Below are positions 882-9,374 of a DNA stretch of 9,374 nt, piece by piece. The stretch lies in IMG/VR virus record IMGVR_UViG_2695420523_000014. One strand, 5' to 3'. The number at the start of each line of letters is the position of its first letter. The stretch's first letter is position 1. The stretch comes from a virus. Taxonomy: Duplodnaviria > Heunggongvirae > Uroviricota > Caudoviricetes. A program made the translations under genes and the position numbers. The notes under the pieces were generated by a model. The model was not told the DNA's origin, searched no databases, and saw nothing but the letters and a program-made list of their open reading frames with translations.

Positions 882-4469
<3,588 letters not shown>

Positions 4470-4473
<4 letters not shown>

Positions 4474-5093
4474 TTGTATCTCCACGTTTGATCCTGATTC
4501 ACCTGTCCTAATAAACTAAAGTATTCATCCCCTTTATAGAGAGATTGATATACTGAATTGGCAGCAATTAGTGGTGGCTGTCTGTCCAGCTTCTTATAAA
4601 TGCTATTCACGTAAACTGTCATTTCATTCGTTTTTTCATTTGGATCGGCTACTGCCTGAATGTAATCAACAAATCCTGAGAACATCAGCATGGAGTACAA
4701 TACAGTACTGTTATAGGGATTCAGGATAACGAGTGTAATATTCATCTGTGCATCTTTAAGGAAGCCCCCTAAAGCAAGTGCTCTTACACTCGTATTCACA
4801 TTACTAATTTTGAAGTTAATCGCATCGTTGTTGATCCCCTTCTGTTCGCTGAAAGAAGGCAATGAACCACTAATGATATCGGGAAAACTAATGTACTGGT
4901 TGCCATTCAGATCAATATCAATAAGTGAATCAGTCCAGTGAAAACCATTTGTACCTTTCGGGAGTACATCAAAACAGGTAACATGCACACCTAAACTCAT
5001 TACATCCATGACACTGAGGCGTGTTTTAGTCGTGCCACGAACTAACTTCCAGTACTTCAATAATGTTGTGTTAGTTAAAATACTTTCGTCCAT
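4470..5093 (-). CDS. Minor tail protein, lambda L-like (tail tip)
   Basis: 207-aa ORF whose ATG (5091-5093) overlaps the stop of the upstream gene as TAATG. It follows the M-like gene and precedes the K-like gene. There is loose motif resemblance to the lambda gpL N-terminal region, but no C-terminal Cys cluster. Confidence 0.6.
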
Positions 5094-5650: not shown

Positions 5651-5685
5651 TGTAACCTCAACAATCCTTGTTTCGAGTATTTATC

Positions 5686-6315
5686 ATGATTGACTTCTTA
5701 AATCACATATTGAGAATATTGCCAATATTATCAGCTATTGCATTCCCTGTTCTTGTGGCAGTAGTGACTCTTTACATAGTCTACAGGAGTGGAAGCACAT
5801 CTATCATTGCCAATAAGATATGGGGGATATTCATTGGTGAGAAAAACTTCTTCGATGAGAAATTAGCACTAAAAGAAAAGGTTGAGCATGACGTTGCTAA
5901 ATTCAATTTCAAAGTTAACCTGAAAACCAAAAATCTCAGTCAAATTGAACAGTTTTATAATTTTCTGGAGAAGTTCGACCTGGATATAGATAGCTTTAAA
6001 GGTCTGCGTGATTGCTACTTGCCTTCATTGCAGAAAGTCAAAAAAACATCTAAAAGTGAAATGTTTAATATTAGTCTGGTTGTAATATTAGTAGGTGGCT
6101 TTTTGCTACCTATATTTGTTGGCGTTTTTATATTTAAAGACATTTCCACTTTTGACGGTGGTAAATTAGCAAATCTATTCATTTACACGTTTCTCATTTC
6201 TGCCAGTACAGTGTTAAGTTTTAGTCAGTTACTTAGAAAGATTAAGTCGATCAATACCCGCAAATTGATCTATAAAAAGAAATGCGAATATCTTGCAAAG
6301 AGAAAGCCCATGTAG
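5686..6315 (+). CDS. Hypothetical membrane protein with three predicted transmembrane helices, encoded opposite to the tail operon; unknown family
   Basis: It is the only long ORF in the 672-bp gap between the tape measure stop and the M-like start, and it lies on the other strand. The ATG at 5686 is preferred over the TTG at 5668 given in the ORF track, but neither has a strong Shine-Dalgarno. Hand-counted GC is about 32-37 percent against roughly 42-55 percent in the flanking tail genes. A 209-codon open frame in such AT-rich DNA is unlikely by chance. The protein has an N-terminal hydrophobic helix, a Lys/Glu-rich middle, two further hydrophobic helices and a basic C-tail. Confidence 0.7.
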   Translation: MIDFLNHILRILPILSAIAFPVLVAVVTLYIVYRSGSTSIIANKIWGIFIGEKNFFDEKLALKEKVEHDVAKFNFKVNLKTKNLSQIEQFYNFLEKFDLDIDSFKGLRDCYLPSLQKVKKTSKSEMFNISLVVILVGGFLLPIFVGVFIFKDISTFDGGKLANLFIYTFLISASTVLSFSQLLRKIKSINTRKLIYKKKCEYLAKRKPM

Positions 6316-6324
6316 GGCTTTCTT
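6300..6324. terminator. Perfect 9-bp stem-loop shared by the convergent 3' ends of the membrane-protein gene and the tape measure gene; candidate bidirectional terminator
   Basis: AGAAAGCCC (6301-6309), loop ATGTA, GGGCTTTCT (6315-6323). The plus-strand TAG stop lies in the loop and right arm, and the minus-strand TAA stop is at 6323-6325. The downstream U-tract is weak on the plus strand and moderate (CUUUG) on the minus strand. Confidence 0.35.
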
Positions 6325-8542
6325 AAGTATTCCGTCTCTGACTGCTTCTTACGGCCTGAGTAACGCTATTAGCGTGCTTCTTCAACATTTCATTGAATTT
6401 CTTATCATCACCTGCAACGTCTCCCTGAATGATCAAGGGGGCGTTGACGGTGATATCTCCAGCAGTACCACCGCCTTTCTCCTGAGTATCGAGGAACTTA
6501 GTCAGCTTCTTGTTAGCTTCTGGCTGTACTACACGCTCACCGGCTTTCAGTATAAAACTTTTGTTATCCATACCAGCGGGCAATTCATCTACACCGCCGT
6601 GGAACTGCCCACTTGCAGCCCCCTTCGCAGTACTGATAATGCTCATACCTAACGATAGTACCTGAGCGTAGTTTGCGAGGCTTGCGGGCCACGGCGTAGC
6701 AAGAGCCTGTGCTAATGCTGATTGTATTGAGAGTACTGTCTGAGCAATAGTAATGCCCTTACTCAATGCGAATGCCGCCTGTGCTGCCCCTGAAGATTCA
6801 CCAAACGCTGCGACCATGCCATCACTTAAGGATTGGGCTGTATCGCTGAAAATTGTTAGTTGTTGCTGTGCATTCTGGTTACTGATATCGATAGCCTGAG
6901 CATTATACTTTGCCGTAATCTCTGCCTTTCTCTTTTCATAATCTTCATGCCCCTTCAGTAATAAATCATTCTGCTGAAGTTCTGCATTCATGGCATCCTG
7001 ATTATCTTTCAGTAATTGATCGGTATTATCATAACTTAAGGGATTACCACCATTGATACGCTGATTTTGCTGATCTGTTAGGAATGATTTTTGAGTACTG
7101 TTCAGTACACCAGAAGAAATTAAGCTATTTGTATCTTTCAGACCCTGATTGGGATCTTGATAACCAACCATTGAATTGATTAAATCATTACGTTGTTTAG
7201 TACCAGAAGCATTTGCGGCATCGACATATTCTTTAAGTTGCTTTGGTGATATTCCAAGTACCTGAGCACTGTCCGTAATCGTCTTAAGAAGGGCTTTCTG
7301 TTGCCTGTCGAACTGCTGTAGGCGTACTTTGAAGCCCTCTTCCCCGACCTGAGCAAGTGCCGTTTCAAGATTACGCTGTGCCTGTAGCCTTTTTGTATCA
7401 GCCTGCTTTTGGACTTGTTCTGCCTGTTTCCGTAGCTGATCGGCTTTCTTCTGAGCATCCTCACGTTCTTTAGCTTCGTCTTTCCAGCCACCTTGCGGAG
7501 CCGTAACAGTAGCTATGTCATTGCGAAAGTTATTCACGAGTCCTTCAAGATTGGCTTGAGCACTGGCGTACACACTCTGCTTGCCATTATCCATACTGCC
7601 AGTTTGCAAGGCTGCACCCTGGTAGTTTAAAGCCCCGGAGGTGCGTAACTTTTCCCATATGTCTAAAAAATCCTGTAATGACCCCTTCGACGTTTTAATC
7701 TTCTCGTTCAGATCTTCAAATAGCCCTGCTTCATGGGGCTTCTGATTGGCGGCATCCAGTATTGCATTCATTGCCCCCACGAGTGGATTCAGACCATCAG
7801 CGATAGTACCTTTGATACGGGTTGTCAGCTTATCCAGATTCTTATCGAACTCTGCATAGTTTGCCGCTGCCTCGTTACTCACTGCGGCGTTCTGGCCCTG
7901 TATGTACGTCATTGCATCGGCTTCAGTATTGAACTGCTGTAGAGTACTGATCATGTGGCTTGAATCACTCGCCAGTGTTTCCATGACGTTGACGATTTCG
8001 GCCTGTGACTTACCTGCATCCCGCATGGCATAAAACGTGTGGATCACGGCCTGCATACCGCCATCTGCTTGTTTAAGGTACTTGTTATATTGCTGTAGGT
8101 TCAGCCCGTACTCTTTAAGATCGTCACTAACACCGCCGCCAGCACGGAACGCATCCCCGAGTTTATCGAGCGTATCCTTGTTGAAATCCCCAAACTTATC
8201 CATTTCAAGCCCAAGACCGCTAAACGCCGCCAATAGCTGCTGAAGCTGCATGACGGACAATCCAGCACTACGACTGATTTCATTCATTTCACGCACATAT
8301 TCGCGGCTTGAATTGACCAGTGCAGTAAGGCCACCAATACCAATTGCAGCAGCCCCCGCTAAACCTGTCATTGCCGTACCGAAACCGCCAGCAAGCCCAC
8401 TAAAACTGCCAGTGAGATCTTCAATCACACCGCCAGCATTTGAACCGAATTCTTCAAGTGATGAGGTGCCTTGTCGCAAAGCACGCTGTAAACCTGACGT
8501 ATCCCCGTCAATATCAAAACGAATTCTATTATTATTTGCCAT
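6323..8542 (-). CDS. Tail tape measure protein (739 aa)
   Basis: Long ORF immediately downstream of the G/G-T chaperone pair, with AGGAAAG 5-6 nt upstream of the ATG. It has a Gly/Ala-rich hydrophobic segment near the N-terminus, a long Q/K/E-rich coiled-coil-like middle and a hydrophobic C-terminal region, all typical of tape measure proteins. Confidence 0.85.
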   Translation of the reverse strand: MANNNRIRFDIDGDTSGLQRALRQGTSSLEEFGSNAGGVIEDLTGSFSGLAGGFGTAMTGLAGAAAIGIGGLTALVNSSREYVREMNEISRSAGLSVMQLQQLLAAFSGLGLEMDKFGDFNKDTLDKLGDAFRAGGGVSDDLKEYGLNLQQYNKYLKQADGGMQAVIHTFYAMRDAGKSQAEIVNVMETLASDSSHMISTLQQFNTEADAMTYIQGQNAAVSNEAAANYAEFDKNLDKLTTRIKGTIADGLNPLVGAMNAILDAANQKPHEAGLFEDLNEKIKTSKGSLQDFLDIWEKLRTSGALNYQGAALQTGSMDNGKQSVYASAQANLEGLVNNFRNDIATVTAPQGGWKDEAKEREDAQKKADQLRKQAEQVQKQADTKRLQAQRNLETALAQVGEEGFKVRLQQFDRQQKALLKTITDSAQVLGISPKQLKEYVDAANASGTKQRNDLINSMVGYQDPNQGLKDTNSLISSGVLNSTQKSFLTDQQNQRINGGNPLSYDNTDQLLKDNQDAMNAELQQNDLLLKGHEDYEKRKAEITAKYNAQAIDISNQNAQQQLTIFSDTAQSLSDGMVAAFGESSGAAQAAFALSKGITIAQTVLSIQSALAQALATPWPASLANYAQVLSLGMSIISTAKGAASGQFHGGVDELPAGMDNKSFILKAGERVVQPEANKKLTKFLDTQEKGGGTAGDITVNAPLIIQGDVAGDDKKFNEMLKKHANSVTQAVRSSQRRNT

Positions 8543-9220
8543 TCTTCTTTCCTAATACCTGATTCCTGATAGCGTCACCGATTGATTTAATATCATTGGC
8601 CTGAGCTTCTTTTTTCTTCTGTTCTTTCACTTCTGCTTTTTCTTGTGTAGTGAGATCGCTATTAAAAACATCCAGAAAATCAAAATCAGCAACTTTGATA
8701 CTACGCCGTGCCTCTGGCGTGAGATTCCCATTACTTATCGTGGTGTAATAGCACTGATAAGCATGTTTCAACATCTCAATTTGCGTACCTGTCGGTTCTA
8801 TATAGGCATCGTAAACCATAAGCATATCGAGTACTTCAGGATCTAAATTAAAGTACTCATCTGGTGATAAACCACGTTTATTGACCATTTTACAGAAGTA
8901 CCGCAGATGGCTATCACATCTTACTTTTTTTCGACTTCATCCACTGGATTACTGTCACTGACAAGTTGAATAATTGCCTGATAGATTTTGCCCTGCATAA
9001 CATAATCAATGCTGTTGACATTAATACGCCCATCAATATCTTCATCAGAGAAAATAGGATCACCATTTTCATCTTTAACACAAAGAATGAGAGTATTTGC
9101 TACATCAGTACAGTTTGCAAAATCGCGACCATTTGGACGGTGGATGTAGAGCGTGAAGCCTTCGATCTCAAATGGTTTTAGCTCTGGTTGTAGTTTCTTT
9201 TTTAGTTCCATTAAATTCAT
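8532..9220 (-). CDS. Tail assembly chaperone G-T fusion, made by a programmed -1 frameshift at 8924-8930 (about 229 aa)
   Basis: The -1 frame after GAA AAA AAG is open (KKVRCDSHLRYFCK) and runs straight into the 118-aa ORF at 8532-8888. That ORF has no Shine-Dalgarno of its own, and its 3' end overlaps the tape measure start by 11 nt. This is the canonical G/G-T arrangement of siphovirus tails. Confidence 0.65.
8921..9220 (-). CDS. Tail assembly chaperone, lambda G-like (99 aa)
   Basis: ATG at 9218-9220 with GGAG 7 nt upstream. It is a small acidic protein directly upstream of the tape measure gene and ends in a slippery A_AAA_AAG heptamer followed by TAA. Confidence 0.7.
   Translation of the reverse strand: MNLMELKKKLQPELKPFEIEGFTLYIHRPNGRDFANCTDVANTLILCVKDENGDPIFSDEDIDGRINVNSIDYVMQGKIYQAIIQLVSDSNPVDEVEKK
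8924..8930 (-). promoter_or_regulatory. Slippery heptanucleotide A_AAA_AAG (-1 programmed frameshift site), immediately followed by the zero-frame stop
   Basis: Minus-strand sequence is GTC GAA AAA AAG TAA. The heptamer is identical to the well-known dnaX-type slippery site. Confidence 0.6.
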
Positions 9221-9236
9221 CTGTTATCTCCATATA

Positions 9237-9267
9237 CGAAAAAAGGAAAGTTAATAACCTTCCCTTT
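9237..9267 (-). terminator. Candidate partial intrinsic terminator between the upstream gene and the G-like gene
   Basis: On the minus strand: AAAGGGAAGG, loop UUAUUAA, CUUUCCUUUU, then UUCG. The stem is 7-10 bp with two G-U pairs, followed by a U-run and then the G-like RBS. The stem is AT-rich, so termination is probably weak. Confidence 0.3.
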
Positions 9268-9285
9268 ATTGGTGATGCTGCCAAC

Positions 9286-9374
9286 TTACTGATTTAGTGT
9301 ATGATGGTGTTTTTGAGGTGCTCCAGTGGCTTCTGTTTCTATCAGCTGTCCCTCCTGTTCAGCTACTGACGGGG
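9286..9374 (-). CDS. 3' end of an upstream gene (start outside window), possibly the major tail protein by position
   Basis: The minus-strand frame is open from the window edge to TAA at 9286-9288 and reads PSVAEQEGQLIETEATGAPQKHHHTLNQ. The functional call rests only on the usual order major tail, G, G-T, tape measure. The fragment is short enough to be a chance ORF. Confidence 0.35.
   Translation of the reverse strand, partial: PSVAEQEGQLIETEATGAPQKHHHTLNQ

Follow-up and report, generated by a model that had tools for sequence, protein, structure and literature searches.

Background

The closest described counterpart of the locus reported here is the tail assembly chaperone pair G/GT of phage lambda. 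Its two overlapping open reading frames (ORFs) are flanked by the major tail protein gene on the 5' side and, immediately 3', by the tape measure protein gene. The second ORF, which lacks start signals of its own, is read in the -1 frame, a slippery heptamer is located at the 3' end of the first ORF, and no RNA stimulator is required. The lambda slippery site is G_GGA_AAG, and the GT:G ratio is low and fixed at about 30:1. Xu, Hendrix and Duda reportedly described a conserved class of lambda-type tail chaperone frameshifts in 2004. The gene order of major tail protein, G, T and tape measure protein is the textbook setting of a G/GT frameshift (review PMC5009743), and annotated actinophage chaperones have a mean distance of 26 nt between slippery site and stop codon (PMC10885494).

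Two further systems bear on the site described below. The first is E. coli dnaX, which has the heptamer A_AAA_AAG; enterobacteria decode it with one tRNA only, tRNA-Lys(UUU). Frameshifting in dnaX reaches ~50% with the aid of an upstream Shine-Dalgarno (SD)-like stimulator and a downstream stem-loop, and the shifted frame ends almost at once. The second is a group of eukaryotic viral sites in which a zero-frame stop codon lies immediately 3' of the heptamer (PMC4373837) and which carry strong downstream RNA structures.

In this study, we analyzed a 9,374-nt stretch of DNA from a Caudoviricetes virus (IMG/VR record IMGVR_UViG_2695420523_000014), hereafter called the window. A G-like ORF and a 118-aa ORF in the window had been proposed, from the letters of the DNA, to form a G/GT pair joined by a -1 frameshift. 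The locus shares with lambda G/GT the position and overlap of the two ORFs, the -1 frame and absent start signals of the second, the terminal heptamer and the independence from an RNA stimulator. It differs in that the heptamer is A_AAA_AAG, identical to that of dnaX, and occupies the last two sense codons, so that the stop codon abuts it and the distance from site to stop is 0. Unlike dnaX, neither stimulatory element is conserved, and the shift adds 130 residues. It is like the eukaryotic viral sites in the placement of its stop codon, but it has none of their RNA structures and its host is bacterial. No similarity to the lambda G or T sequences could be detected (Pfam Phage_tail_T is absent), and identity to the HK97 tail assembly chaperone (PDB 2ob9) is only 18%. 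Taken together, the comparative evidence presented below indicates that the locus very probably uses a programmed -1 ribosomal frameshift to produce the tail assembly chaperone pair of a siphovirus-type prophage, analogous to lambda G/GT.

Methods

Relatives of the locus were gathered by exact-protein look-ups and pattern scans, which yielded 54 loci with the motif from E. coli, Klebsiella, Buttiauxella, Scandinavium, Pluralibacter, Pseudescherichia, Phytobacter and uncultured viral contigs. These were reduced to 38 distinct junction sequences, which fell into 16 clusters at 85% nucleotide identity. Third codon positions in the junction set differ by ~48% between pairs.

Results and discussion

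Anatomy of the G-T junction

The long ORFs of the window are all on the minus strand. The features of the junction, in the direction of transcription, are as follows.

8921..9220, minus strand: G-like ORF for a tail assembly chaperone of 99 aa, closed by TAA and translated without a shift
8937..8939, minus strand: TGA that shuts the -1 frame upstream and, with the TAA, confines the shift window to 16 nt (8936..8921)
8924..8930, minus strand: slippery heptamer A_AAA_AAG in X_XXY_YYZ phase, made up of Lys98, Lys99 and the third base of Glu97
8921..8923, minus strand: TAA stop of G (the 'intercodon'), abutting the heptamer with zero spacer
8889..8924, minus strand: linker VRCDSHLRYFCK, 12 codons readable only after a -1 shift, with no ATG, GTG or TTG
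8532..8888, minus strand: T segment (the '118-aa ORF' with its stop), the C-terminal part of the predicted GT fusion, with ATG at 8888 and end at 8532
6323..8542, minus strand: tape measure protein gene, 739 aa, matching phrog_13674 'tail length tape measure protein' (E 2.7e-88)

The G ORF has its start at 9220, preceded by the ribosome binding site GGAG, and its 3' end reads ...GAT GAA GTC GAA AAA AAG TAA on the minus strand, the last four codons as had been read originally, with the heptamer formed by the last two sense codons and the base before them. The -1 frame from 8936 reads AGT CGA AAA AAA GTA AGA TGT GAT AGC CAT CTG CGG TAC TTC TGT AAA ATG, and the first codon after a -1 slip would be GTA (8924..8922). 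Translation bore out the claim that a slip on A_AAA_AAG opens 12 codons into the 118-aa ORF; a stop in the -1 frame ahead of that ORF was looked for, and the frame is open. The predicted GT fusion has 229 aa, and its junction, EVEKK-VRCDSHL, is the peptide that had been foreseen for the span 8889-8930, which corresponds to heptamer plus linker. Both frames are open together for 16 nt in the window and for 10 nt in many relatives, where a TGA directly precedes the heptamer. Since the overlap in those relatives is just AAAAAAGTAA, a change of frame is possible nowhere else in them.

The heptamer by itself is unexceptional. AAAAAAG occurs five times on the two strands of the window against 2.4 expected, and 16 of 200 shuffled sequences reach five. 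A 12-codon open stretch is likewise unremarkable in one sequence, and the frameshift reading drawn from a single sequence alone is suggestive at best. Because a bare heptamer is not rare, the weight must rest on context and comparison.

Conservation of the junction in relatives

G ends GAA AAA AA[G/A] TAA in all 38 distinct junction sequences, from 16 lineages; the last base of the heptamer is G in 33 and A in 5, and its conservation in relatives, a check that had been suggested for the original prediction, is thereby documented. The extended motif GAAAAAA[G/A]TAAG is kept in 38/38 with the T segment in the -1 frame, and GAAAAAAA is the sole invariant run of at least 6 nt within the 591-nt G-T block. 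T is in the -1 frame at each of the 54 motif-bearing loci, the linker comprises 12 codons in every junction, and the -1 frame, traced upstream, stays open as far as the heptamer in 38/38 but never much beyond it. The excess over chance thus lies in position and conservation, with the same motif, phase and frame relation found throughout the distinct relatives compared.

G contains its own internal control. A second in-frame A_AAA_AAG (CTA AAA AAG) spans codons 6-8 (9197..9203, minus strand), where a -1 slip would end after 9 codons (..KKETTTRAKTI*). This early heptamer is found in only about one third of relatives, its Lys codons having drifted to AAA AAG AAA, AAG AAA AAA, ATG AAG AAA and others, and it is probably incidental, judging from this variation. 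As the early heptamer drifts, the terminal one is evidently kept as a nucleotide signal and not merely for Lys-Lys.

One protein (P0003, from locus L012; ENA ERZ1332367 tig00000001, 3750-4560) was considered as a natural in-frame G-T fusion, with the site GAAAAAATAAGA, 2 nt shorter. It was given no weight and is most likely a homopolymer error, because L012 comes from a long-read 'tig' assembly and has other A-run frame breaks in comparison to the near-identical L028.

The conserved run of A residues also allows for slippage by RNA polymerase. If one A were added within the A7 run (A8 in some relatives), a subpopulation of mRNAs would encode an identical GT (..EKK-VR..); it follows from the sequence that one inserted A and a -1 ribosomal slip are equivalent in their product. 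The A residues form a homopolymer, which reaches A8 in 5 of the 38 relatives, and productive cases at A/T runs are known, such as Thermus dnaX. However, efficient transcriptional slippage in bacteria is reported at nine A/T, and runs of more than seven A make up the class listed for transcriptional realignment, whereas the run here is A7 in 33/38, never exceeds eight and has been lengthened in no lineage. Moreover, the exact X_XXY_YYZ phase and the mostly final G, the optimum for tRNA-Lys of the E. coli type, would be irrelevant to a polymerase. We therefore regard transcriptional slippage as an improbable source of GT and favor a slip by the ribosome.

Coding of the linker and possible initiation at ATG 8888

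Among relatives, the linker is kept as [VI]RxDxxLx[YH]FC[KR], with synonymous changes at several codons (CTG/TTA/CTA, TAC/TAT, TTC/TTT, TGT/TGC and AAA/AAG). Pooled over pairs of related sequences, and hence a descriptive ratio and not a P-value, pN/pS of linker codons 3-12 is 0.31 in the -1 frame versus 1.04 and 1.35 in the other two; the comparison value over the first 25 codons after the ATG is 0.21. The frame-specific signal is nonetheless clear: the linker evolves as coding sequence in the -1 frame only.

Consistent with the original reading of the 118-aa ORF as lacking a ribosome binding site of its own, anti-SD duplex energies revealed no SD before the T ATG in any of the 38 distinct sequences. 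The best duplex averages -0.44 kcal/mol in relatives and is a poor -3.0 kcal/mol in the window, where seven of eight other gene starts tested have values of -4.1 to -6.6 kcal/mol.

These results bear on whether T is an independent gene, expressed from ATG 8888 by de novo initiation or by termination-reinitiation 32 nt past the G stop, with an incidental heptamer. ATG 8888 is invariant in all relatives, as are neighboring residues, its distance from the stop is short, and gene callers annotate an ORF of 118 or 95 aa; in addition, one sub-lineage (L008/L009) has an SD-like GAGGTGAT 9 nt before an alternative in-frame ATG. Against independent expression of T stand the missing SD and the purifying selection on 10 linker codons that lack a start codon and are constrained in the -1 frame only. 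The open -1 frame reaches the heptamer in every relative and stops near it, and heptamer, phase and frame offset are invariant while the second heptamer of G drifts. We consider it very unlikely that T is made solely as a separate gene product, although some initiation at ATG 8888 in addition to frameshifting is conceivable.

The sequence directly 3' of the stop codon varies among the loci. Most relatives have TAAGAGGTGAT at this position, which resembles the SD core, and the window (8910..8923) has TAAGATGTGAT. The former, seen at L008:2495-2535, at L009:3980-4020 and in most of the remaining relatives, is the coding sequence of an Arg-Gly-Asp that is conserved in the linker. In L008 and L009, an in-frame ATG (MHFCR...) lies 9 nt past the SD-like core, and gene callers start a 125-aa ORF there. 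Judging from this arrangement, the L008/L009 lineage might make some free T as well.

The T segment has no Pfam or PHROG match. The lambda gpT family, PF06223 Phage_tail_T, does not match T of the window and matches one of 25 relatives at E 0.17, which is noise.

Stimulatory elements and expected efficiency

No conserved downstream stem-loop or pseudoknot was found with RNAalifold across the 38 sequences, for which consensus energies were 0 to -0.05 kcal/mol, no better than those of shuffled columns. Single-sequence folds downstream of the site differ from one another, with a mean z-score of -0.9. A hairpin in the window, AGATG..CATCT, was considered as a stimulator and dismissed, as it is not conserved. 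A conserved upstream SD of the dnaX type was also not found, the anti-SD duplex averaging -2.3 kcal/mol against a background of -0.86 +/- 1.8 kcal/mol.

Lambda-type sites work at a few percent without RNA structures, and the absence of stimulators here fits that pattern. In one E. coli reporter (PMC4066793), heptamers without stimulators reached only 2-10 times the background of 0.055%, whereas HK97-like chaperone genes show 6-7% frameshifting (PMC3711429). Context thus clearly matters, and the efficiency at the present site could be low.

The stop codon abutting the heptamer

TAA abuts the heptamer in 38/38 relatives, and the codon choices that preserve it are unusual. The -1 frame Arg codon that provides the last A of TAA is AGR in all 38, where AGR makes up 32% of Arg codons in these genes; by comparison, the invariant Arg17 (T codon 17) is CGN in 22/38. 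Similarly, 'TA' comes from a Val/Ile codon that is GTA or ATA in every case, and the invariant Val14 is GTT in 25, GTG in 7, GTC in 5 and GTA in 1. The TAA is therefore kept beyond the needs of the overlapping codons, and we infer that termination of G at exactly this point is selected. Most simply, G must end there; the TAA may also set the G:GT ratio through competition between release factor and slippage.

The original prediction further held that the abutting stop may itself stimulate slippage. This part is not supported: the TAA is under selection, but in the one bacterial experiment found, that of Horsfield 1995 as described in PMC4373837, a stop as the codon after a slippery heptamer reportedly lowered -1 frameshifting. 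According to the same source, overexpression of RF2 abolished that -1 frameshifting. Lower shifting with a stop, together with the effect of RF2, implies that the two processes compete for the A site. PMC5009743 refers to a plant virus whose frameshifting depends on a stop codon close by.

A more specific role for the stop codon can be envisaged, tentatively and with less than even expectation, in which UAA would be a working part of the recoding signal. A_AAA_AAG_UAA would then act as a stimulator-free 10-nt cassette, bracketed in many relatives by a -1 frame UGA directly upstream; slippage would follow translocation, at a stage when the A site holds the stop codon, and release factor versus re-pairing of tRNA-Lys would set G:GT. 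The idea draws on the conservation of the stop beyond coding constraint, the absence of other stimulators and the weakness of bare heptamers in reporters. Since the bacterial data suggest that a stop lowers shifting, any effect of UAA would be one of tuning, not stimulation. If this proposal is correct, the G:GT ratio would be responsive to release-factor activity or to the translational state of the host.

Genomic setting and the IS1 insertion

The family membership of G was evaluated by profile and fold. G has a weak match to chaperone families (phrog_344, E 1.3e-5), and its score against Pfam PF16459 Phage_TAC_13 is 20.5 bits (E 6.4e-4), below the 28.8-bit gathering threshold. Matches to PF16459 in relatives are weak as well (25 of 26, best E 5e-5), and a distant homologue (P0036) has a precomputed match. 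On these profile scores, kinship to PF16459 is at the margin, and G was not filed as a member. Profile comparison of G with PDB sequences produced nothing above noise. Fold comparison, run on database homologues of G, showed that it has the tail assembly chaperone fold. The exact 99-aa protein is present in many E. coli and Klebsiella assemblies.

The genes around the junction are those of a tail operon. The immediate upstream neighbor of G is a PF08813 major tail protein gene in the intact copies (L001-L007) and in the relatives L008 and L009, and the intact copies have a capsid and portal module beyond it. Past the tape measure gene are genes for a distal tail protein, further tail proteins and a 1067-aa tail tip protein, and the neighboring tail genes are all intact ORFs.

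The last 11 nt of T (8532..8542; ..AAG AAG AAT GGC AAA TAA) are shared with the tape measure gene, whose ATG is at 8542. This layout is typical of translational coupling, and ribosomes that make GT would finish just where translation of the tape measure protein begins.

Between the tape measure and distal tail protein genes is an ORF on the opposite strand (5668..6315, plus strand), which encodes 215 aa and matches Pfam DUF6216 (E 5e-21); PADLOC gave no match for it. It is present in L001-L008 and absent from L009, and it looks like an inserted accessory gene ('moron').

Upstream of G, the window departs from the intact copies. Its last 104 bases (9271..9374) are the end of an IS1 that is 99-100% identical to IS1 in P1, SfIV and others. 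Similarity to the intact copy L001 breaks off at the IS1 border, exactly 50 nt before the G start; this border falls inside the 57-nt spacer that separates the major tail protein gene from G in intact copies, and the window ends within IS1. The window appears to be an entire draft contig that terminates in this repeat, being the longest contig with its exact 118-aa protein. An assignment of 9260-9374 to a cloning vector was rejected, as the sequence is the IS1 end, which the vector in question also carries. With IS1 in the spacer, the tail operon of the window is severed from the genes upstream of it and from the late promoter. IS1 may have silenced the operon, and normal expression of this copy is doubtful. 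Functional statements made here apply to the prophage family and not necessarily to the window copy.

This insertion, along with a bare heptamer that is statistically ordinary in the window, could speak for a chance arrangement or for a functionless, decaying remnant in a defective prophage. Such an origin is hardly credible, however, given that the block from G to the tail tip gene of the window differs from the intact copy L001 at only 5 of 6300 positions, that the adjacent tail genes are free of disruption, and that the arrangement is kept in 16 diverged lineages from several enterobacterial genera.

Proposed mechanism

A programmed -1 ribosomal frameshift would operate at this junction as follows. 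Most ribosomes would make the 99-aa G and terminate at TAA. A minority would slip back one base while tRNA-Lys(UUU) decodes A_AAA_AAG, with AAA-AAG re-paired as AAA-AAA, and would then read GTA AGA TGT... through the linker and the '118-aa ORF' to give the 229-aa GT. By analogy to lambda, the tape measure protein, the product of the next gene, would be bound by the G part, and the T part would recruit the major tail protein. The GT:G ratio would be set by translation and, as in lambda, is expected to be low and fixed. The gene order, the fold of G, the conserved motif, phase and frame, the linker that codes in the -1 frame and the absence of an SD all support the original prediction of a G/GT pair joined by a -1 slip in which T is not an independent gene, to the extent that comparison of sequences can do so.

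Representation in databases

A tblastn search with the G-T fusion against 50,697 phage records gave no match at E <= 1e-3. The G-T region was likewise without a match in near-identity DNA searches that covered phages, plasmids and complete E. coli genomes. Among isolated phages, the most similar tape measure proteins are ~32% identical, the nearest being that of Klebsiella phage KLB5, which was set aside as a comparator as its chaperone region is organized differently. In records of E. coli, Klebsiella, Shigella sonnei, Enterobacter and Rahnella, both G and T are labeled 'hypothetical protein', with no frameshifted-chaperone label, and, depending on the assembly, the T region is given as an ORF of 118 aa or as one of 95 aa that starts at a later ATG.

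Conclusions

The mechanism proposed here is well known, and no new one is revealed; what is new is the membership of this chaperone pair. The site is about as compact as such a signal could be: its seven slippery bases have stops on both sides, and there is no RNA structure. Hundreds of enterobacterial records, from E. coli, Klebsiella and others, merit relabeling as a tail assembly chaperone and its frameshift-extended form. The natural variants, which have AAG or AAA as the last codon and overlaps of 10 to 28 nt, constitute a convenient system for learning how the next codon, a stop, sets the efficiency of -1 frameshifting in bacteria.
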